Assembly: GCA_038884455.1 (NCBI GenBank)
Contig: JAWABU010000001.1
Span: 11,263-75,262 of the forward strand
Reading direction: 5' to 3'
DNA from: Thermoplasmatota archaeon
Lineage (GTDB): Archaea > Thermoplasmatota > E2 > DHVEG-1
Length of the DNA stretch: 64,000 nt
Shown in pieces: positions 467 to 29,317 of the stretch. The first letter of the stretch is position 1. Every line of letters starts with the position of its first letter. The position numbers were made by a program, and so were the translations under genes. Under the pieces are notes generated by a model. The model made no database searches, was not told the origin of the DNA, and saw only the letters and a program-made list of their open reading frames with translations.

Positions 467-539
467 GCCCCGGTAGTGTAGTGGCCTATCATGAAGCCCT
501 GTCGAGGCTTCGACCTGGGTTCAAATCCCAGCCGGGGCG
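467..539 (+). tRNA. tRNA-Asp (anticodon GTC)
   Basis: 73-nt cloverleaf: acceptor GCCCCGG/CCGGGGC, anticodon arm AAGCC-CTGTCGA-GGCTT with anticodon GUC, T-arm GGGTTCAAATCCC. Resembles archaeal tRNA-Asp. CCA is not encoded. Confidence 0.85.
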
Positions 540-3713: not shown

Positions 3714-6395
3714 TTACGGCCAGGGCACTGTATACCACTGATGTTTCCATAAGATCTGCAACGTCCAATCACCCGGCAGTGGAGTGTCACCAAGAATCCA
3801 AATACGAATCAATTGTCCATTCTGAGCATGCCATTGAATCGTCCGAGTAATATCAATAAAATTCTGACCACTCAGTCTGAATCCATACCAATAATTACCA
3901 CTCTGTGAAGGGTCAAAACCAGCCTCAAGGTTGAACTGATCACCAACCGGTTGACCAAACGTATGAATCGTCACATATCCAGTTTCCTGTAACGACCAGG
4001 TAAATTTTACCTTTCGATTTGCAAAAAACGAAACAGACCCCTGGAGTTTAAATCCTGGTGTTGTTGTGTTTACAAAAGTCACTGCAACATTTTTATTTAC
4101 CTGCAACTCCAGCATCCCTGATTCACCAATGTTCCATGTTGCGGCAATACTCAACAGATCACTATCAACATGTACCGAAATATCAACTGCATCTAAGGAA
4201 AGAATACGACCTGACCACTGCAAATTTCGAATCTGATTCCCAACCTTATCCCAAGAAATCATGAGATGATCACTGGTTTGTATCCCAAGACCAAACCTCA
4301 GCATCAGACTTCCTTGATCATGCACGGTAAGCGTAGTATACAGCAGCTGATCACCACCGGTAATCACCGAAAGAACACCATGATTGTTCTGCGCATCAGG
4401 AAGATCCCAGACAAGCTCAGTATGATTGTTTTTTAACTCCAACGTATTTGTAATTGTCCATCCTGCATGACTTACAGAAAACGTCACCGTTGGTTCGCCA
4501 CCAACTGCAGTACTCCGCATCATAGTAATATGACCTCTTCGATCAGATCGGTTGACATCCCATGCTATTTGAACAAACGTCGTACTCAGTTCAAGTGTTT
4601 TTGAAAACACCCAATCTTTGTACTGAATCGTTGTCGTAGAAAGCAATGACGCCTCAGGGCTACGTTCAAGAGTTATCATTCCCGTCCCCTGTAAAATCTT
4701 AATATCCCATGAAAGTTTTACAAATGCACATGCAAGAATAAACGTTTTTGTCACGGAAACCTCACCAAAACGCAACCCTACATCGAGCGTTCGCGGTTCA
4801 TCGTAATCCCGTACAATATGAATATATCCAGTTCCTCCTGCAACATCAATAAAACTGTCACATCGAATCATCTTTGGCACCTGCGTGATTCGCATAAACG
4901 GTTCATACACCCCAGAGAAATACAAACCAAGCTCTTCAACATCAGACGACATATTCAGTTCAGCGAAACTTTGTGCAGACAGATCACCAAGCACACCCAA
5001 TTCAAGACCCCATGCTGCATGAATGCGCTGTGGGAGATTACTGACTGCAAAACAAACAAGTGTACCATTTTGCTCTGAATCAAGGCTATAAGAGATGTCA
5101 TATGGCCGATCTGACTCATAGAGAAACTCTCGAGATCCAAGAATAGTTAAATCAAACTTCATGTAACTTGGCAACGGGTCGATCACAAATCGCTGAATAA
5201 TAGCATCAAGAATACCGCCCTCTGCACGAAATGAAATTCTTGTTGACACACCAGCGCTTTTGCCGAACTCATATGAAATGGTTGCCTGTGTAGGAACCGC
5301 GGTGATCGTAAGTTCAGTTGCAGGATCAAATTCAACAGAAAAACATCGAGAAAACACTTCATGACCCTCACCATCAACAGTCGTATACTGGGTAAAAAAC
5401 GTTACCTGGGAACCAGTCTCAAGAGAATCAGGTTGTATTATTAATCGAACAACCCGGGGATCATCAAGATGCTCTCGGCCGACAAAAAACGATGTCGTCA
5501 CCTTATTGATACCATCTCCAACCGCAGTGGATCGATACCCAATTTGCGTACTGAAAAAAGGATTATTCTTGGTATCAAGCTCACCACCGGAAAGAAGGAC
5601 AAACGGAAAACGAACCTCTAACGAAGCCTCATAATTTTTCGACGTATCACAGCTGGTTTCAAGATGAAATCTCGTTTCAATAACATTCTCAGAATTCTGT
5701 GTTATCTTTGTTCGGGTGAAACGCAGCTCAACAGCTGTATCATCTTTTGACTGCATACTTGTAAGAAAACGCTTCGTTTCACCAGTTGTAAGCATCGAGT
5801 TAAAATCAGCGATTCCGAGATTCAACGGTGTCCTAAGCGTCATACCATTATCATACCGAGTATTGATCCACACGCCAAAATCATCACGACCTATTTTGAC
5901 AAACAAGACTTTTATCAAATCGCGAGCACATTCTTGATCTTGATCATCAAAACCATACACCCGAATCGTATACAACCCAGATGAAAGCCCCAGATCCATT
6001 GAAAAACCATTAATAGTGTTATAATCCCATCGTTCAGTTTTCCACCCTGTTGCCATCTGCGTTGCCTCAAATCGTACATGATGCACATCGACTGATTCAG
6101 TGTCAATAGTAAGACTCCGACCGACAACCACAGCAAGACCAAGATGAAAGATATTCGGTAACTTCATCGGGCGAAGACGAAAAAGATACAACTGACCAGC
6201 GACAGGATATGTAATTACAAGTGATGACTGCAAACCTACGGTTGCAGATCGTTGAGATTGCACAACAATTGGTTGTTCTGGTTGATCAGAAAGCAATTCA
6301 TATTGAGTGAGATGAAAAACAGCAGCGCGATACGGCGTAGAAAACATCAAAAAAACCAAACAGAATAGTATTCCTCCTACTACCCTCTTTTTCAT
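3714..6395 (-). CDS. Large secreted hypothetical protein (893 aa) with N-terminal signal peptide.
   Basis: Long ORF on the same strand immediately upstream of the DUF2341 protein (43-nt gap). N-terminus MKKRVVGGILFCLVFLMFSTPYRAA is a typical signal peptide. No recognisable catalytic motifs. Confidence 0.75.
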   Translation of the reverse strand: MKKRVVGGILFCLVFLMFSTPYRAAVFHLTQYELLSDQPEQPIVVQSQRSATVGLQSSLVITYPVAGQLYLFRLRPMKLPNIFHLGLAVVVGRSLTIDTESVDVHHVRFEATQMATGWKTERWDYNTINGFSMDLGLSSGLYTIRVYGFDDQDQECARDLIKVLFVKIGRDDFGVWINTRYDNGMTLRTPLNLGIADFNSMLTTGETKRFLTSMQSKDDTAVELRFTRTKITQNSENVIETRFHLETSCDTSKNYEASLEVRFPFVLLSGGELDTKNNPFFSTQIGYRSTAVGDGINKVTTSFFVGREHLDDPRVVRLIIQPDSLETGSQVTFFTQYTTVDGEGHEVFSRCFSVEFDPATELTITAVPTQATISYEFGKSAGVSTRISFRAEGGILDAIIQRFVIDPLPSYMKFDLTILGSREFLYESDRPYDISYSLDSEQNGTLVCFAVSNLPQRIHAAWGLELGVLGDLSAQSFAELNMSSDVEELGLYFSGVYEPFMRITQVPKMIRCDSFIDVAGGTGYIHIVRDYDEPRTLDVGLRFGEVSVTKTFILACAFVKLSWDIKILQGTGMITLERSPEASLLSTTTIQYKDWVFSKTLELSTTFVQIAWDVNRSDRRGHITMMRSTAVGGEPTVTFSVSHAGWTITNTLELKNNHTELVWDLPDAQNNHGVLSVITGGDQLLYTTLTVHDQGSLMLRFGLGIQTSDHLMISWDKVGNQIRNLQWSGRILSLDAVDISVHVDSDLLSIAATWNIGESGMLELQVNKNVAVTFVNTTTPGFKLQGSVSFFANRKVKFTWSLQETGYVTIHTFGQPVGDQFNLEAGFDPSQSGNYWYGFRLSGQNFIDITRTIQWHAQNGQLIRIWILGDTPLPGDWTLQILWKHQWYTVPWP

Positions 6396-6614
6396 GAATC
6401 ATTCACCTCTTCGTATGCTCCAGAGAGGTATCCCTCTAAAAAATTAACTCTCTTCACATATATATTAGGTGAAACAGGTATTTAACATTTATGTAAAAAA
6501 CAGGATTTTTCAGCAATCTGTGAAATCCTAACAGCGCAAACATGCAGAAAAAACATCAAAAATTACCTCAAGAAAAAGATACACAACTCATGCAAATACT
6601 ATAAGATTTGTAAG

Positions 6615-6868
<254 letters not shown>

Positions 6869-6908
6869 AATCACATGCAACCTGTTTAACGATTGAGCCA
6901 GATGATGA

Positions 6909-9820
<2,912 letters not shown>

Positions 9821-10008
9821 ATTTACGTCCAGGTTGCATATGCACCCATTACCAAACAACATCATCATTATTCTGGTAATGGAACGTTCATCGACACAAA
9901 CAACCACATGTCTAGACATGCGGCGGTCTCCGTTCTTATCAACTTATGTGCATTTCACACAAGCTGACGTTGAATTTCATGAGAGTATCTTTTTTAGGAA
10001 AATCGCAA

Positions 10009-10080
10009 TGGACCGGATGGGATTTGAACCCATGGCCTCCTGCTTGCAAAGCAGGCGATCTTCCGCTGATCTACCGGCCC
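10009..10080 (-). tRNA. tRNA-Ala (anticodon TGC) in the 16S-23S spacer
   Basis: Minus read GGGCCGGTAGATCAGCGGAAGATCGCCTGCTTTGCAAGCAGGAGGCCATGGGTTCAAATCCCATCCGGTCCA. Anticodon loop UUUGCAA. G3:U70 pair, the alanine identity element. Confidence 0.9.
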
Positions 10081-10203
10081 TTTCTATAATATAACTATCT
10101 ATATTATATTAGGAGCCGATGGAATTCAGTTACCCTTAATATAGTTTTCTTTTTGATCGACGTGCGATTTTTCAGTGTCTACTACATCTGCCGTTATTTT
10201 CGT

Positions 10204-11672
<1,469 letters not shown>

Positions 11673-11935
11673 TCGCACACTATTATTATTGTCCTATACA
11701 ACTTTATTTGAATTTGGCAGGTGTAGTAAATATCACCAAATTGCACGTCAATCGTCGGGTTTAAGAGTGCGCAAGTACCCTCTTAAGATACTTGATTTTC
11801 TTAAACCTCCACATCCATATGTTGCCCAGATGTGAAACGACCTACTCACAGACAATACAATACTGTACTCTTATAGGTCAACCGGAATAATCCGGGCAGG
11901 TAACTAATTGAGGTAAACACACCGAATAGAATTAT

Positions 11936-11947
11936 GATATATAAATC
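11936..11947 (-). promoter_or_regulatory. Candidate TATA box (TTTATATATC, minus strand) for the rRNA operon, about 260 nt upstream of the 16S 5-prime end.
   Basis: Plus strand GATATATAAA at about 11936-11945. Match to the archaeal TTTATATA consensus in the AT-rich leader. No other strong TATA element lies closer to the 16S. Confidence 0.35.
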
Positions 11948-12166
11948 TTACACTGACTTGGCCTGCGATGTTCAGTGCTCATACGTCTATTAAGCTATCA
12001 CTAGTAGTTTATATCAATTTTAAGAGATTCAAGGTTTTCATCAAACAAATCCTTTCAATGATTTTCTTGAAAATAATCACTAACTAATGTCTCTGTAAAA
12101 ATTAGATGAAAAAAACCAAAAACCTCAAAGTGAGAAGCAGTATGATACCAAACGAAGAACTACGAG

Positions 12167-12659
12167 TTATAGATATTGAATAACTTCTGTTATCCGAGGA
12201 TTACGGATACCTTGTCGTCGTATTGGCACAATGGTTTCAAGGAGCTGAAGTTCTGAAGCATATCCCTGAAAACGATCGTTAAACCGTTCAACAAATCGTT
12301 TTGCTGTGACGATACTATCTGCTTGGAAGGTAAAAATGCCGTCAACACATCCATGAACATATTCAATGTTTTCAATGCGGATTTGTCCAGGTGGGAGAAG
12401 ATCATCTAACTGTGTGTTCATAATTTCATTGAGTACTTTATCATCAAGTGGCTTTGTCGTTCTTTTCATTAGCATGATAAAATGTTTTCTTTCAGAATAC
12501 TCGTCGTCGACCACGGCAGAATATCCCCAAATGACTTTTTCTCGTTCCAGTTTTTTAATGATACGCCATACTTTCTGATGTGAAAATTTACATTTTTTTG
12601 CGATGACATCAATGCTTTCTTTCGCCTCAGTTTGAAGAACATCAAGTACTTTTTTTCAT
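12167..12659 (-). CDS. Lrp/AsnC-family transcriptional regulator. The reading frame is broken by a frameshift in an A7 tract directly after the start codon, so this is a possible pseudogene, sequencing error or slippage site.
   Basis: ATG at 12659-12657 is followed by AAAAAAA. With one fewer A the frame reads MKKVLDVLQTEAKESIDVIAKKCKFSHQKVWRIIKKLEREKVIWGYSAVVDDEY... (HTH_AsnC plus RAM domain, continuous to the stop at 12167). As sequenced, ATG AAA AAA AGT ACT TGA stops. The ORF track recovers only the downstream 115 aa from the GTG at 12514. Confidence 0.6.
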
Positions 12660-12727: not shown

Positions 12728-12799
12728 TGGACTGGGCGGGATTTGAACCCGCGGCCTCCGCCTTGCGAAGGCGGCGATCTTCCGCTGATCTACCAGCCC
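12728..12799 (-). tRNA. tRNA-Ala (anticodon CGC)
   Basis: Minus read GGGCTGGTAGATCAGCGGAAGATCGCCGCCTTCGCAAGGCGGAGGCCGCGGGTTCAAATCCCGCCCAGTCCA. Anticodon loop UUCGCAA. G3:U70 present. Confidence 0.85.
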
Positions 12800-22330: not shown

Positions 22331-23029
22331 ATGGGAGTACGAGATGTTTTAGCTGAAAAAATTGCCGGAGAAATTACCCTCAGTTCGAAACCAGGAGAGA
22401 CGATTCGAAAATGGAGAACTATTTTTAATATCTCACAAACAGAACTTGCTACCATGTTGAAGTTGTCACCCAGTGTGATCAGCGACTACGAGTCAGGTCG
22501 ACGGAAGTCTCCTGGAATCAATACAATTAAAAAAATTATTGAAGCTTTTTTAAAAATTGATGAAACAAAAAATAATTCAAAAATTATGAGAAGTTATCAG
22601 TTTATCACAAAGAATCAAGAAGGCATTATTGATATTATGGAATATTCGTATTCAATTCCCATTATCAAATTTCTCAAAGAGATACATGCAAAGTTGTTAA
22701 CGTCAAAAAAACATGCTGATACTCACATCAAAGGCTTTACGCTGGTTGATGGTATTGAAATAATAAAAACATTAAATTCAGCAAATTATTCGAATCTGTA
22801 TGGTTGGAGTACTGAACGTGCATTAATTTTTACCGGTGTTCATTACGGTCGAAGTCCTATGATTGCGATCCGTATTCATCCGGTAAAACCTTCTGCTGTA
22901 ATTTACCATCAACCTGGCGGTGTTGATCCGTTAGCGGTGCAGCTTGCTGAGCAAGAAAAAATACCGCTTGCCGTCACCCAGATGCCAATGGATGATTTAC
23001 GAAAAAAACTAGTTATTATTGGGAAGTGA
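22331..23029 (+). CDS. XRE-type HTH transcriptional regulator with an uncharacterised C-terminal domain.
   Basis: HTH_3 segment IRKWRTIFNISQTELATMLKLSPSVISDYESGRR. 232 aa. Divergent from alaS. Confidence 0.7.
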   Translation: MGVRDVLAEKIAGEITLSSKPGETIRKWRTIFNISQTELATMLKLSPSVISDYESGRRKSPGINTIKKIIEAFLKIDETKNNSKIMRSYQFITKNQEGIIDIMEYSYSIPIIKFLKEIHAKLLTSKKHADTHIKGFTLVDGIEIIKTLNSANYSNLYGWSTERALIFTGVHYGRSPMIAIRIHPVKPSAVIYHQPGGVDPLAVQLAEQEKIPLAVTQMPMDDLRKKLVIIGK

Positions 23030-23035
23030 ACAGGC

Positions 23036-23182
23036 ATGGTTGATCTCTTTGGACTCTGCAGTATGTGCGGGAAACCTGATGCAATGTACACCTGTCATCT
23101 CTGCGGTCAATTGGTTTGTAGTCGTTGTTTTTCATTTGAACATGGTATCTGTAGAAAATGCGCATTTCGTGCTCAAAAATAA
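23036..23182 (+). CDS. Mini zinc-ribbon protein (48 aa, CxxC-x7-CxxC-x2-CxxC... pattern), unannotated in the ORF track.
   Basis: ATG 6 nt after the regulator stop. MVDLFGLCSMCGKPDAMYTCHLCGQLVCSRCFSFEHGICRKCAFRAQK with eight Cys in a treble-clef-like arrangement. Ends at TAA 23180-23182. Confidence 0.5.
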   Translation: MVDLFGLCSMCGKPDAMYTCHLCGQLVCSRCFSFEHGICRKCAFRAQK

Positions 23183-23190
23183 TATGTGTT

Positions 23191-23556
23191 TTATGCGTGG
23201 AGAATACGGTCAATACTTGCTTTTAAGTGCATGATATCAAAGGGTTTGGTAATGTATTCAACTGCAGCAAGATGCCCCATGCCAATGCTCATTTCATCGC
23301 CTTTTGCAGTAAGGAAAACAATGGGTATCTGTTTCCATCGTTGATTTTCTTTGATTCTTGCAGCAACATCCCATCCATTCATCCCTGGCATCATAATGTC
23401 AAGAATGATAAGATCAGGAATTGTTCGTTCAAGCTTTTCTAGACATTCGAGACCGTTGTGTGCTGTGATTACCTGGTACCCGCTGACCTCAAAGAGTTGG
23501 CCGACTGACGTTCTAATATCTTCTTCATCATCAACAATGAGAATTGTTTTTGTCAT
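23191..23556 (-). CDS. Single-domain response regulator (CheY-like receiver).
   Basis: TILIVDDEEDIR...LIILDIMMPGMNGWDV...LTAKGD: phospho-acceptor Asp and conserved Lys present. Start likely MTKTIL at 23556; the ORF extends to 23616. Confidence 0.8.
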   Translation of the reverse strand: MTKTILIVDDEEDIRTSVGQLFEVSGYQVITAHNGLECLEKLERTIPDLIILDIMMPGMNGWDVAARIKENQRWKQIPIVFLTAKGDEMSIGMGHLAAVEYITKPFDIMHLKASIDRILHA

Positions 23557-23720
23557 AGAATCATCGTTTTTCTTTGTGGTGTACATCTCATTCAACCTAA
23601 AAAAGATTATGTTCATAAGTCGCCGTGGGAATATAAGAAATTTTTAATAACAAATGAATGATGCAATAGTTGGTACATTTCAGCAGATGTTGAGAGCGAT
23701 CATATATAGTTGATGAGCAT

Positions 23721-24920
23721 ATGTTCCAACGAGCAGAATTATGTGAAAAACTATTACAAACAATGATAGATATTATTAGTAGACGAACGTCGCAAGATTA
23801 TGCGTTAGTTATAATTTACAGTGCAACAAAAAATCTCGAGGTAAAATATCCTTTTTTCAAAGCAGTGACCATTCAGAACGTTCGTTTTTCAGAATATGAT
23901 CGATTTGTTTCTGTTGCACCAACACTGAACACGACGAATGGAGCAGAACTTAGCGCAGGTTTACAGGAATTGATTACCTCCATTGTTACGTCCATGGGTA
24001 GTCATGCTGGTTTTTTTTTCATGAAAGAATTACAAGATAAACTTGGTCCAATATACAGTCAAGAGATACGTGATCTTGCTCTTGATCTGAATTTGTTGCA
24101 ATCACAATTAACTCTGGATCGACAGCAAGATAATACCTCAACAAGCAACCATCAAGACTTCATTAAAAAGATGTTCAAAGCAGTTATCGAGATTCTTGAG
24201 AAAGATATGACAACGACTGAAGCACTTGAATTTCTTCGTAAACAATGTGCCCAACATTCTGAAGAACACCAATGGCTGCGCTATATTTCATTAGTCAACG
24301 TACGTATTGTTCAGGGTGTGGATATGGTTGTCGTTGCTCCTGATGTTGATTCTGTTGACTGTTTTGAAATTGGAAAAACATTCAATGATCTGCTCAACGA
24401 TCTACGTACACAGCTCGAACACAAAGGAGGAAGCTACTTTTTTGAGGAATTTAAGAAAAAATTTACATCAGAATATTTGCAGTACATGCAGGATATTGGA
24501 ATTCAGTTTAAAAAATATCAAGCAAGTTATGAAGATGTTTTAAAGGAAATCATCAACGCGACGCTCATTGTTTTAAGTAAAGCAAGTACGCATCAGTATG
24601 CAGTGTTCGCGGTGAATAATTTTTTACGAAAAATTGAATCTCGTTTTACGTATTTTAAATATATAACTGTTGTTCCATCTCAAGAACCTGGAAAAAATTA
24701 TGATATTATTATTATGGAAAATCTAGATCAGATCAGTGAAACCGATACGAGGCGAGGAATTCAAAAGCTATTAAATGAGATCTGTACCTGTCTTGGTGCT
24801 TCGTTACGAAAACAATTTATTGATGAGTTTAAAAAATCACTTGATCCGGTATTTTTAGAACGTATCGAAGAGATGGGAATCAATCTGCATATGATTCAAT
24901 TAAGACAAGAGTTTCTGTAA
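23721..24920 (+). CDS. Hypothetical 399-aa protein with three internal ~50-aa repeats, embedded in a two-component gene cluster.
   Basis: Three repeated segments (...MGSHAGFFFMKELQDKLGPIYSQEIRDLAL..., ...EHKGGSYFFEEFKKKFTSEYLQYMQDIGI..., ...LGASLRKQFIDEFKKSLDPVFLERIEEMGI...). No recognisable catalytic motif. Confidence 0.7.
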   Translation: MFQRAELCEKLLQTMIDIISRRTSQDYALVIIYSATKNLEVKYPFFKAVTIQNVRFSEYDRFVSVAPTLNTTNGAELSAGLQELITSIVTSMGSHAGFFFMKELQDKLGPIYSQEIRDLALDLNLLQSQLTLDRQQDNTSTSNHQDFIKKMFKAVIEILEKDMTTTEALEFLRKQCAQHSEEHQWLRYISLVNVRIVQGVDMVVVAPDVDSVDCFEIGKTFNDLLNDLRTQLEHKGGSYFFEEFKKKFTSEYLQYMQDIGIQFKKYQASYEDVLKEIINATLIVLSKASTHQYAVFAVNNFLRKIESRFTYFKYITVVPSQEPGKNYDIIIMENLDQISETDTRRGIQKLLNEICTCLGASLRKQFIDEFKKSLDPVFLERIEEMGINLHMIQLRQEFL

Positions 24921-25130
24921 TGTTGTACCTTTTGATTACGTTAGATAAAATCTTTATAGATAAAAAACGATACTGTTTTCGAACACAAAGGATAAGATAT
25001 AGCACTATCAACATATTAAGGACTGAACGTAGGATGGGAGTACATGAAAATTTGGCAAAATGATATTCTCTTTAAAAAATGAATATATATCTTTTTGTAT
25101 ATATTTAATTATCCGAGCAGGTGGAGCTGT

Positions 25131-26516
25131 GTGATAAAAAAAATTCCTGATCCAAAAACTTTTCTTTTTGGAAAAATCAGCAGAAAGTTAACCTTGGTAT
25201 TTCTGCTCGTTGGTATCGTTGCACCAACAATTAGTATTTCATATTTTTATGCATTATCAACGTCTTTTTTATCGCAACAGTCAACGATTATCTATCATCA
25301 AACAACTGTTCTTCGATACACGGCACTACTACTTATTATTCTCATTGCAATAGATACTGCGCTTATTGGTTTTTTTGTCTCCAGAAGCATTTCAAAACCG
25401 ATCACGTTTCTACAACAAGCAACTCAAAAAGTAGAACGAGGTGATTTTTCAATACAAACAAACATAAAAACCGGTGATGAACTCGAGCAACTCAGTCATG
25501 CTTTCAATAAAACGACACTTGCCTTAAGTAAAATGGAATCAGAGCGAAAAGAGATTGACAAAGCAAAGTCAGAGTTTTTAAGCATCACATCCCATGAATT
25601 ACGAACGCCAATGACACCGATGAAAGCACAGTTACAAATGCTTGAAAATGGATTTTTTGGCTCTTTAACAGACAAGCAAAAAGAAAGTATACGAATCATT
25701 ATGAGAAATGCAGAACGACTTGACAAAATTATAGAGGATTTTCTTGAAATTTCTCGTATTGAAGCCGCACGGTTAAAATTTGTATTTCGTAAAGTAGACC
25801 TGACCCAGATACTTCATGATACTGTCAGTTTTTTAGAAGGGTTTGCCCGTGAAAAAAACATTACCTTGAAAATTCATACAACTCAGTTACCAATAATCGA
25901 AGTTGATCCTGATCGGGTAAGTCAAGTTCTCCGTAATCTTGTTCATAATGCGATCAAATTTTCTCCAGAGAACAGCGTTGTTGATATTGATGCTTACGAA
26001 AAAGATGGATACATTCAATTTAGCGTTGCTGATCATGGCGTTGGTATGAAACCTGCAGATCAGATCAGAGTTTTTGAACCGTTTTATCAAATTGAAGATC
26101 ATCTGAATCGGAAACATGGTGGAACTGGCTTAGGTTTAACTATCTGTCGAGGTATTGTCGAAGCCCAAAAAGGAAAAATCTGGGTTGAAAGTGAAGTTGG
26201 TAAAGGCAGTATCTTTTATTTTACGGTACCGCTCAAGCCGGTTACTGAAATAGAACCCATTAAAGTTTTATTTTCATCAAAGAAAGAAATTGAAAATAAA
26301 GTACAAGAAATATTCACTGAAATACTTGGGCCGATGGGCACTGTTGAATTTTCAGAACTGAAAAATAAAAATGCTTTAGGCAGAAAAGATATATTAGACT
26401 ATATTGATACCTTACATCAACAACATATACTTCATGATATACAAACGACAGTATTTCGACAGGCGGTAGATTCGATCTTTGGAACGAAAACAAATCCTGA
26501 AAAAAATGATATATGA
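25131..26516 (+). CDS. Membrane sensor histidine kinase (2 TM, HAMP, HisKA, HATPase_c).
   Basis: H-box ITSHELRTPM. N, G1 and G2 boxes (HNAIKFS, DHGVGM, GGTGLGLTI). Start uncertain: GTG at 25131 with an upstream GGTGGAG, or the TTG at 25095 used by the ORF track. Confidence 0.85.
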   Translation: MIKKIPDPKTFLFGKISRKLTLVFLLVGIVAPTISISYFYALSTSFLSQQSTIIYHQTTVLRYTALLLIILIAIDTALIGFFVSRSISKPITFLQQATQKVERGDFSIQTNIKTGDELEQLSHAFNKTTLALSKMESERKEIDKAKSEFLSITSHELRTPMTPMKAQLQMLENGFFGSLTDKQKESIRIIMRNAERLDKIIEDFLEISRIEAARLKFVFRKVDLTQILHDTVSFLEGFAREKNITLKIHTTQLPIIEVDPDRVSQVLRNLVHNAIKFSPENSVVDIDAYEKDGYIQFSVADHGVGMKPADQIRVFEPFYQIEDHLNRKHGGTGLGLTICRGIVEAQKGKIWVESEVGKGSIFYFTVPLKPVTEIEPIKVLFSSKKEIENKVQEIFTEILGPMGTVEFSELKNKNALGRKDILDYIDTLHQQHILHDIQTTVFRQAVDSIFGTKTNPEKNDI

Positions 26517-26541
26517 ATGAAATAAGAAGAGGGAAGATGGG

Positions 26542-27723
26542 ATGCGGCTACGAGCATTACTCATCGTCATGTGTCTTGCAATTGCAATGATCCCGATTGG
26601 AATCATCAGCGGTTTTTTAGGTTTTGAGATTGCATCTGCATATTTTATTCTAATTGTTGGTATTACTTTTTGTGTGAGTTACGCGATTGCATATTTCATT
26701 ACTCGCCCCCTTGAAAAATTAACAAAAACGATCAATGAAATCAGCCGGGGTAATCTTGATGTTACTCTTGAAAAAAGCGAGATTCTTGAGATCAATGCAT
26801 TAACTGAATCATTAAATCGTGTTCTAGCAAGCTTAAAACTAGCGATCCATAAGGTTGGTGTGAAAAAAGGTGAAATATTTGAAGAAACGGTAAAAGCAAA
26901 GGAAGCTGCTGAGAAAAAATATCAAGATTTGTTAAATACGATTGATGCATGGGCGTGGGAAACAGATGCCCGTGGCATATACACGTTTTGTTCTCCGAAA
27001 GTCGCAGATGCACTCGGCTACAAACCTGAGGAAGTTGTTGGAAAATCGATTTTTGAATTTATGCCTCCTGATGAAGCAAAAAAAGTGAAAATCGGGTATT
27101 ATGCTGTTAACAAAAAGCAGACGCCGATGCAGCAGCTTGAACAGTATTATTTTCATAAAAATGGTACACCTGTTCGTGTGTTTACCAACGCCGTACCAAT
27201 TTTTGATCATCTTGGGAATTTTTGTGGATATCGCGGTGTTCATCGAGATGTAACAACCCATGAACCTTTCGAACATAAAATCGAAGAACTAATTTTGAAA
27301 AATATTAAAGTAAAAGAGTGGAGAAAACGCGCTCCTCATTTATTCAAAGAGTATACTGATATTGACACAAATCAGCTTGATTTCCACGACATCAAAAAAC
27401 AACAAAGGAGTACTGAGCTATCTGATTATTCGTATATCTTTGACGACCATGGAAATATCATTGATTGTACCGGTAAAATCACAGAAAAACTGGGTTATGA
27501 AAAAGAAGATTTCTTAAATTTGTCTCTCAGTGATTTTGATACCTTTGAAGATCCTCAAGAATTCAAAGATCGGTTAAATACTGTCCGTCAGCATGGCGAG
27601 ACACATGTCAAAACGATTCATAAACGGAAAGATGGCTCACTGATTCTTGTCAGTGAAACAATTGAGTATTTAAAAGATAAAGGGTTGTTCCGCTGTATAG
27701 TAAAAGAAGATTTTCTGATCTAG
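26542..27723 (+). CDS. Membrane-anchored HAMP plus two PAS-domain sensor protein without an output domain.
   Basis: Two N-terminal TM helices. HAMP-like ITRPLEKLTKTINEISRGNLDV. Two PAS-like segments (DAWAWETDARGIYTFCSPKV..., IFDDHGNIIDCTGKITEKLGY...). 393 aa. Confidence 0.8.
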   Translation: MRLRALLIVMCLAIAMIPIGIISGFLGFEIASAYFILIVGITFCVSYAIAYFITRPLEKLTKTINEISRGNLDVTLEKSEILEINALTESLNRVLASLKLAIHKVGVKKGEIFEETVKAKEAAEKKYQDLLNTIDAWAWETDARGIYTFCSPKVADALGYKPEEVVGKSIFEFMPPDEAKKVKIGYYAVNKKQTPMQQLEQYYFHKNGTPVRVFTNAVPIFDHLGNFCGYRGVHRDVTTHEPFEHKIEELILKNIKVKEWRKRAPHLFKEYTDIDTNQLDFHDIKKQQRSTELSDYSYIFDDHGNIIDCTGKITEKLGYEKEDFLNLSLSDFDTFEDPQEFKDRLNTVRQHGETHVKTIHKRKDGSLILVSETIEYLKDKGLFRCIVKEDFLI

Positions 27724-29071: not shown

Positions 29072-29317
29072 ATGGATGAAACGCAACAACCTGAATCACG
29101 AGGTGTTTTTAGTCTTGCCTTGAAAGAATACAAAACCATGGAAACAAAACTTTATGGCGAGCTTATGAAAACATGTCGCAGTTACAGTAATAAACTAAAT
29201 ATTATTTCTATTGTTGGTATCCTTGATTTAGTGAAACAAGAGATGAAAGACCTTGATAAAACCGATTTTCGGTTCACCAAATACGGAACATCAAGCGACG
29301 AGACAGATACTCTGTAA
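29072..29317 (+). CDS. Hypothetical 81-aa protein.
   Basis: ORF only. No motif recognised. Compositionally plausible. Confidence 0.3.
   Translation: MDETQQPESRGVFSLALKEYKTMETKLYGELMKTCRSYSNKLNIISIVGILDLVKQEMKDLDKTDFRFTKYGTSSDETDTL

Follow-up and report, generated by a model that had tools for sequence, protein, structure and literature searches.

We analysed a 64,000-nucleotide stretch of DNA from a Thermoplasmatota archaeon (GenBank assembly GCA_038884455.1, contig JAWABU010000001.1, positions 11,263–75,262), referred to here as the window, and in it a cluster of six genes (22331–27723) in which an uncharacterised triple-repeat protein of 399 amino acids (aa), TRI, adjoins genes for two-component signalling. 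The order and the domains of these genes had been proposed in an earlier note made from the sequence alone, and all six were found where it had placed them. The cluster begins on the plus strand with an HTH_3 protein of 232 aa identified by Pfam (HTH232, 22331–23029), followed by a 48-aa open reading frame (ORF) with four CxxC pairs, the zinc-ribbon ORF (23036–23182, plus strand), which is conserved across loci. A CheY-like receiver of 121 aa (REC; Pfam Response_reg, E 7.5e-28) lies on the minus strand at 23191–23556. It is separated by an AT-rich intergenic region with TATA-like stretches (23557–23720) from the divergent TRI gene (23721–24920, plus strand), recognised as an ORF and by its repeat statistics. 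TRI is followed on the plus strand by a 473-aa histidine kinase of the architecture HAMP-HisKA-HATPase_c (25095–26516) and a 393-aa HAMP-PAS-PAS protein with no output domain (26542–27723), both assigned by Pfam and hydropathy. The whole 64-kb window holds one REC and one kinase, and both adjoin TRI. A scan of the locus for bacterial-type promoters and terminators gave chance expectation, using a bacterial consensus that is not applicable to archaea.

TRI consists of three tandem copies of a unit of ~133 aa, here called DOM, which together cover the whole protein. Its thirds (residues 1–135, 136–268 and 269–399) align without gaps over ~122–125 residues, with BLASTP E-values of 1e-14 to 4e-10 between thirds and Smith–Waterman z-scores of 14–18; the observed score was reached by none of 300 shuffles. 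The internal triple repeat proposed earlier is therefore confirmed, with the correction that the unit is ~133 aa and not ~50 aa. The motif originally read as the repeat, G..xFFxEFKKKLxP.YL..I.D.GI, covers only the C-terminal portion of the unit, which is conserved in all three copies, and lies at about residues 93–125, 226–258 and 360–392. Repeat 1 (23721–24125, plus strand) carries the most canonical signature (RRT, Y.FF, E58, GxxAGFFFxKE, D122 and Q127), with D122 occupying the position of the family motif GVDL, which reads LALDL in this repeat. Repeat 2 (24126–24524, plus strand) is the most degenerate copy, GGSYFFEEFKKK, and repeat 3 (24525–24917, plus strand) has a strongly conserved C-terminus, RIEEMGINLHMIQLRQ. 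TRI is acidic (isoelectric point, pI, 5.5) and has no transmembrane segment by hydropathy, indicating a soluble protein. Using the DOM profile, no hidden copy of the domain was detected in the kinase, the HAMP-PAS-PAS protein, HTH232 or the receiver, even at E ≤ 100.

TRI had been described as a protein with no known motif, and the family searches agree with this. No Pfam or NCBIfam family was found in TRI, PDB sequence-profile searches with DOM returned designed helical repeats or noise only, and Pfam scans of 16, 10 and 31 members of the DOM family assigned no family. We then turn to structure. An AlphaFold model of repeat 1 alone, built on 33 diverse homologues, has a predicted local distance difference test score (pLDDT) of 91 and a predicted template modelling score (pTM) of 0.85. 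The model places two long helices, a short helix, a β-hairpin, a short helix and three long helices in this order. The full-length TRI model (pLDDT 80.8, pTM 0.43) has good domains whose mutual arrangement is uncertain. With Foldseek against the PDB, neither the full TRI model (best E 0.11) nor the single-DOM model (best E 0.8, template modelling (TM) score ≤ 0.33) gave a convincing match; a well-characterised unrelated fold, which the earlier note had named as a result that would speak against a signalling module of a new type, was not matched with AlphaFold and Foldseek. We also considered DOM as a winged-helix/MarR domain and rejected this candidate: MarR chains appeared only at Foldseek E > 1 and TM ≤ 0.23, and DOM lacks the basic character, its pI being mostly 4.7–6.3 with one single-domain outlier at 9.6.

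The family signature comprises R21, T23, A28, L39, Y43, F45-L46, I51, Y56, E58 and N70, followed by G93-x-x-A-G-x-F-F-I-K-E103, G-V-D-L123 and Q127. No conserved His or Cys was found in the alignment columns (alignments A2 and A4). The conservation of R21, T23, Y43, Y56, E58, N70, K102, E103, D122 and Q127 suggests that these residues may form a specific binding site rather than belong to a passive scaffold.

To delimit the family, an exhaustive profile search was run with a cut-off of E ≤ 1e-3, and representatives were clustered at 50% identity. DOM is present in at least 364 cluster representatives, 103 of them at E ≤ 1e-30. A word-indexed search with TRI returned only 20 clusters, all of 371–414 aa, and one with the domain alignment A4 returned no matches. 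Architectures were counted in 168 inspected DOM sequences. Triple repeats account for 81, plus three of a 441–444-aa triple variant, and single-domain proteins of ~146 aa for 45, while ten carry a C-terminal extension of ~165 aa. This extension gives weak winged-helix signals (HTH_45 E 1.8e-4, AdcR E 0.5) and is probably a winged helix (wHTH). One protein, P0166 (274 aa), is a REC-DOM fusion (REC E 8.4e-24, DOM E 3e-44), and its cluster has three members, each on a separate contig. A further candidate, P0044 (265 aa), consists of residues 1–43 of a window-type receiver running directly into a triple-repeat sequence, with an aberrant C-terminus; it was not counted as a fusion and is probably an assembly chimera, because the receiver and triple-repeat genes are normally divergent. 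Tandem DOM genes (~232 + ~296 aa) recur in many sediment metagenome contigs (L084–L113, for example L105 at 5297–6894; L numbers denote DOM-centred loci). Every DOM homologue with an organism name comes from Thermoplasmata or Thermoplasmatota, every name given by the sources is 'hypothetical protein', and the protein closest to the 399-aa ORF, at 98% identity, was found in a metagenome-assembled genome labelled 'Candidatus Thermoplasmatota archaeon'. DOM is thus an undescribed domain family that is restricted to Thermoplasmatota among the named sources.

We next examined the neighbourhoods of DOM genes, which were annotated with hidden Markov models built for REC, the kinase core, HAMP-PAS and HTH232 and checked against Pfam labels. 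In clade A (the window, L001, L003/4, L008, L009, L016, L017, L027, L006/7 and L015), a divergent REC is followed by TRI and then, where the contig continues, by the kinase and the HAMP-PAS gene. The divergent REC/TRI pair is kept in all ten informative loci of this clade. It is retained even in L006, L015 and L017, where the genes beyond REC differ; L017 has two extra receivers in between. The kinase downstream of TRI is conserved in L001, L003, L008, L009, L016 and L017. Two further loci arrange the same partners differently. In L010, a REC, a 401-aa triple-repeat protein and the REC-DOM fusion are tightly packed on one strand, and in L040 a 444-aa triple-repeat protein is encoded 4 bp after a REC. 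Between the L010 cluster and another stand-alone receiver lie two ORFs of 181 and 207 aa with no Pfam match (L010, 11019–12202); by eye, the 207-aa ORF resembles small-molecule-binding V4R-like proteins.

The DOM + wHTH genes show a further arrangement. Those with at least 64% identity to P0136 lie 7 bp after an operon of a REC and a multi-PAS kinase (kinase core E 1.7e-47) in all of the 21 loci whose upstream DNA extends to 3.5 kb or more. At 56–58% identity, a kinase gene is still found as neighbour, but it is convergent with the DOM + wHTH gene or lies upstream of it. Co-occurrence of the 399-aa protein's homologues with signalling genes, which the earlier note had put forward as a check, is therefore seen in the divergent REC of clade A, in L010 and L040, in the REC-DOM fusion and in the wHTH operons. 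In a different setting, single-domain DOM genes of 146–147 aa lie directly upstream of three to four archaellin genes in two locus types (L012, 8001–8441; L036, 7001–7444), which hints that this subfamily may be connected with the regulation of the archaellum. An EarA-family gene is found 1.4 kb upstream of the single-domain gene in L012, and a REC-PAS-PAS-DUF835 regulator among the archaellin genes of L036.

The receiver itself is the most constant of these neighbours. Its ORF in the window spans 23191–23616 on the minus strand, and the likely start is the ATG at 23556 (MTKTILIVDD), giving 121 aa, compared with 116–126 aa in its homologues. It has all the residues for phosphorylation: the Asp-Asp pair, the phospho-acceptor Asp (LDIMMP), the Thr (FLTAK) and the Lys (TKPF). 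Receivers 50–74% identical to that of the window flank DOM genes in clade A, L010, L024/L026, L040 and L105/L106, and the receiver half of the REC-DOM fusion belongs to the same subfamily; other receivers in DOM loci are 38–45% identical to it. The DOM proteins are only 28–38% identical across the groups that share the window-type receiver. One CheY-like receiver subfamily thus tracks DOM, either beside it or fused to it. In ~866 kb of DOM-centred loci, many of them redundant, 50 of 50 kinase genes have a DOM gene no more than 2 kb away. The density of receivers near versus far from DOM is uninformative, since operons of REC, a 3-kb kinase and DOM put the receiver outside the 2-kb bin.

The kinase of the window is well supported by Pfam (HisKA E 2.1e-19, HATPase_c E 1e-29), with a SHELRTP H-box, an N box and G boxes readable. 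It has two transmembrane segments (about residues 30–55 and 70–100) joined by a loop of ~15 aa and followed by HAMP. Past HATPase_c, a C-terminal tail of ~90 aa (residues ~385–473, 26250–26516) has no Pfam match; it is probably conserved, because orthologous kinases are similar in total length (440–482 aa). The HAMP-PAS-PAS protein has two transmembrane helices and no loop by hydropathy. Its gene always follows the kinase, with reading frames overlapping or nearly abutting in L001, L008, L016 and L017. Because the two genes are adjacent and often overlapping and the kinase loop is minimal, we infer that the two proteins may form a two-polypeptide membrane sensor in which the PAS domains would serve as cytoplasmic input and the HAMP-PAS-PAS protein is a probable co-sensor of the kinase. 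This pairing of the genes is also the one hint of the heterodimer that the earlier note had considered.

Taken together, we favour the reading that DOM is a dedicated partner or output module of one stand-alone CheY-like receiver subfamily, with TRI as a soluble, cytoplasmic protein, and give it a probability of roughly one half. In the proposed mechanism, the membrane kinase, with almost no extracytoplasmic loop, would probably be controlled by the co-transcribed membrane HAMP-PAS-PAS protein and would phosphorylate the divergently encoded receiver. The phosphorylated receiver would dock on one or more DOM repeats of TRI, and docking would change the conformation of TRI or its contacts with a downstream target. 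TRI would then carry three receiver-read modules on one chain, and its relatives would wire DOM to a wHTH for transcriptional output, to REC by fusion, or place it alone beside archaellin genes. The parts of this scheme that we infer are that REC binds DOM physically, which way the signal flows and what TRI acts on downstream. A broader version is possible and more tentative: DOM may be a structurally new 'receiver-reader', a docking target of stand-alone archaeal receivers that is wired to varied outputs. If so, these outputs would be transcription through the wHTH fusions, the archaellum through the single-domain proteins and another process through the triple-repeat protein, and DOM would be the first conserved, testable partner for an archaeal CheY-like class without known targets.

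DOM could instead act at the input side, which we consider rather unlikely. By analogy with stand-alone H-NOX proteins that act on neighbouring kinases in bacteria, DOM would be a ligand- or cofactor-binding sensor, and TRI would respond to some small molecule in the cytoplasm and adjust the activity of the kinase encoded next to it. The DOM + wHTH proteins would then be one-component regulators, and REC-DOM would be analogous to REC-PAS. Such a role fits the position of TRI just upstream of the kinase, which has nothing but two transmembrane helices and HAMP before its catalytic domains, and also the DOM + wHTH layout, which is typical of one-component systems with a sensor and a DNA-binding domain. 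A pocket could be lined by the conserved polar/aromatic cluster, and a single sequence out of 31 from the DOM family matches Pfam HNOB (E 0.003, below the gathering score). In the literature, an input role has been considered for REC-associated domains, and a likeness of MetOD1 to HNOB/V4R has been noted (PMC5847659). However, the alignments of DOM with H-NOX reached hhalign probabilities of only 0.7% and 2.5%, DOM offers no invariant His or Cys that could bind a cofactor, and it lacks the C-terminal α/β subdomain that holds the haem in H-NOX. The sensor model also leaves unexplained why the most constant neighbour is one receiver subfamily and not the kinase. A relationship of DOM to H-NOX/HNOB was set aside as unsupported on the hhalign probability of 2.5%; the H-NOX side of this comparison was a small rebuilt alignment, and the H-NOX homologue search gave two proteins only. 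DOM also has no YxSxR motif.

Several observations weigh against DOM as a dedicated receiver partner. The arrangement between the TRI repeats is poorly predicted (pTM 0.43), and much of the synteny of clade A could stem from shared ancestry, as the genes for alanyl-tRNA synthetase and an aminotransferase are also syntenic. The single-domain genes adjoin archaellin genes, not receivers. The DOM + wHTH proteins at 41–47% identity are mostly tandem pairs of a 232-aa DOM protein and a DOM-wHTH protein without a two-component neighbour, the exceptions being L105/L106, with three receivers, and L114/L119, with a kinase 1.1 kb upstream. A further large group is clade B (13 loci, 28–30% identity), in which the triple-repeat gene lies in the order Lhr helicase, (145-aa gene), triple-repeat gene, HMG-CoA synthase, thiolase, DUF35 and HTH232. 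REC or kinase genes adjoin the triple-repeat gene in none of the 13 loci, and a pair of REC genes lies within 4 kb, upstream of Lhr, in only two of the seven loci with enough sequence. Among species-representative genomes, full-length homologues stand between Lhr and HMG-CoA synthase, with no adjacent two-component genes, in 11 of the 14 that are informative. A finding of homologues mostly outside signalling neighbourhoods, which the earlier note had said would count against its proposal, is thus obtained in part, and it concerns one derived clade. In a neighbour-joining tree, midpoint-rooted and without support values, the deep branches belong to the triple-repeat proteins that are associated with REC, and clade B forms one nested clade. 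The clade B block as a whole is highly conserved in L018–L026, L030 and L031, for example in L024 at 4482–12630; its thiolase is an acetoacetyl-CoA thiolase, and the zinc ribbon follows HTH232 at its end.

Clade B invites another explanation: the triple-repeat protein may have a housekeeping or structural task peculiar to the lineage and take no part in signalling, two-component genes having been inserted beside it in some lineages and the synteny then inherited. The block of Lhr, triple-repeat gene, HMG-CoA synthase, thiolase, DUF35 and HTH232 in 11 of the 14 informative genomes speaks for it, as does the presence of one copy per genome sampled. HTH232 flanks the triple-repeat gene in both contexts, suggesting an old shared chromosomal region. 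However, one inherited synteny block cannot account for the REC-DOM fusion, the REC-TRI operons whose genes are 3–4 bp apart and the presence of DOM-wHTH genes in operons with REC and a kinase, which are independent arrangements. Moreover, the REC/TRI pair is retained where the flanks differ, and the clade that lacks two-component genes branches within the tree, not at its base. We therefore regard this explanation as improbable. It is very improbable that DOM is a phosphorelay component between receivers, either an Hpt-like bundle or a CheZ/CheX-like phosphatase, since the modelled helical bundle and the multiple stand-alone receivers around the DOM gene in L010, L017 and L105/L106 are offset by the absence of a conserved histidine anywhere in DOM and by a Pfam scan that, up to E 10, gave no signal for Hpt, CheZ or CheX.

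Returning to DOM as a receiver partner, its link to two-component genes is recurrent and probably ancestral; it is not universal, because the 13 loci of clade B have no adjacent two-component genes. The idea that the 399-aa protein is a signalling module of a new type is accordingly borne out in that an undescribed family is tied to two-component genes, and has to be restricted in that the association does not extend to all members.

The remaining genes of the cluster belong to a separate unit. The zinc-ribbon ORF lies directly after HTH232 in 11 of 13 loci, clade B loci included; besides the window, it was seen in L001, L003, L008, L009, L020, L023, L024, L025 and L027, and most of the source annotations do not call it. 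The ORF is a real, conserved small gene and looks like a zinc-ribbon partner of HTH232. In clade B loci without two-component genes, HTH232 lies downstream of HMG-CoA synthase, thiolase and DUF35, and it is absent beside REC in L006, L015 and L017. Because the HTH232/zinc-ribbon pair travels independently of the kinase, near mevalonate-pathway genes, it is probably outside the signalling system and merely abuts the receiver. The 'two-component island' of the earlier note is therefore reduced to REC, the triple-repeat protein, the kinase and the HAMP-PAS protein, with the HTH regulator and the zinc-ribbon ORF set apart as a conserved pair of their own.

Elsewhere, the archaeal window contains a complete linked 16S-tRNA-23S-5S rRNA operon at 6727–11671 on the minus strand, made up of the 16S (10204–11671), a spacer tRNA between 16S and 23S (10009–10080), the 23S (6893–9821) and the 5S (6727–6845), all on that strand. 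The GC content rises to 47–50% at 6–12 kb of the window because of this operon. Further tRNAs are found at 12728–12799 (minus strand) and 467–539 (plus strand). Within the 64 kb, no second DOM gene and no Lhr, HMG-CoA synthase or archaellum genes were detected. An ORF of 81 aa without a Pfam match (29072–29317, plus strand) follows a class I/II aminotransferase gene, and ORFs of 72–74 aa stand at the equivalent position in L001, L003 and L008.

The significance of the locus lies first in its background. Some 40% of the response regulators of archaea consist of a receiver domain and nothing else, and archaeal receivers, mostly stand-alone, are thought to act through protein–protein contacts (PMC5847659). 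In the 2018 census, most bare archaeal receivers lie outside conserved neighbourhoods, so that their targets are not inferable, and Thermoplasmata are nearly devoid of two-component genes, with 3 kinases and 4 regulators in 11 genomes (PMC5847659). Against this background, the locus offers a receiver subfamily with a conserved and sometimes fused partner, a confident single-domain model and a residue signature, and DOM defines an unannotated family in a phylum until now regarded as nearly lacking two-component signalling. The receiver and TRI also make up a defined pair on which binding and phosphorylation could be studied. The weight of these findings is limited by the uncultured hosts, by the large clade without signalling neighbours and by a function that is read from context.

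Compared with known systems, the kinase and receiver of the window conform to the classical two-component system by sequence criteria (HisKA, HATPase_c and the receiver residues), and phosphotransfer between them is predicted. The kinase/HAMP-PAS pair resembles split or accessory-sensor kinases in combining a minimal-loop kinase with a separate, output-less membrane HAMP-PAS protein; it differs in that no characterised homologous pair was identified for it and that the pair is known here from its genes. DOM shares with H-NOX/HNOB, V4R and MetOD1 that it is small, mainly helical and often encoded beside histidine kinases, and differs from H-NOX in having a β-hairpin only and no haem-ligating His.

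A closer likeness in distribution is found among the lineage-specific archaeal REC-associated domains, which Galperin et al. described in 2018 and which are mostly unfused, narrow in range and presumed to act by protein–protein contacts (PMC5847659). Like HalOD1/2, MetOD1–5, NitrOD1–5 and TackOD1, DOM has a narrow range, is mostly stand-alone with a rare REC fusion and occurs in several architectures, whereas a covalent triple repeat is not described for those domains. TRI and 41 other DOM sequences gave no match to PF18545–PF18551, PF11537 or HalX, apart from one MetOD2 trace (E 0.08) in one of 31 sequences.

In the CheY-CheF-archaellum system of Euryarchaeota, a stand-alone receiver acts through a dedicated soluble adaptor. 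DOM is alike as a proposed receiver adaptor and in that its single-domain genes lie directly upstream of archaellin genes. It differs in that no che genes were seen in DOM loci, that the window and the triple-repeat loci have no archaellum genes and that DOM sequences gave no match to Pfam CheF (DUF439) or FlaC/D/E (Arch_fla_DE) up to E 10. In summary, the locus combines a known type of two-component pathway with an undescribed receiver-associated domain.

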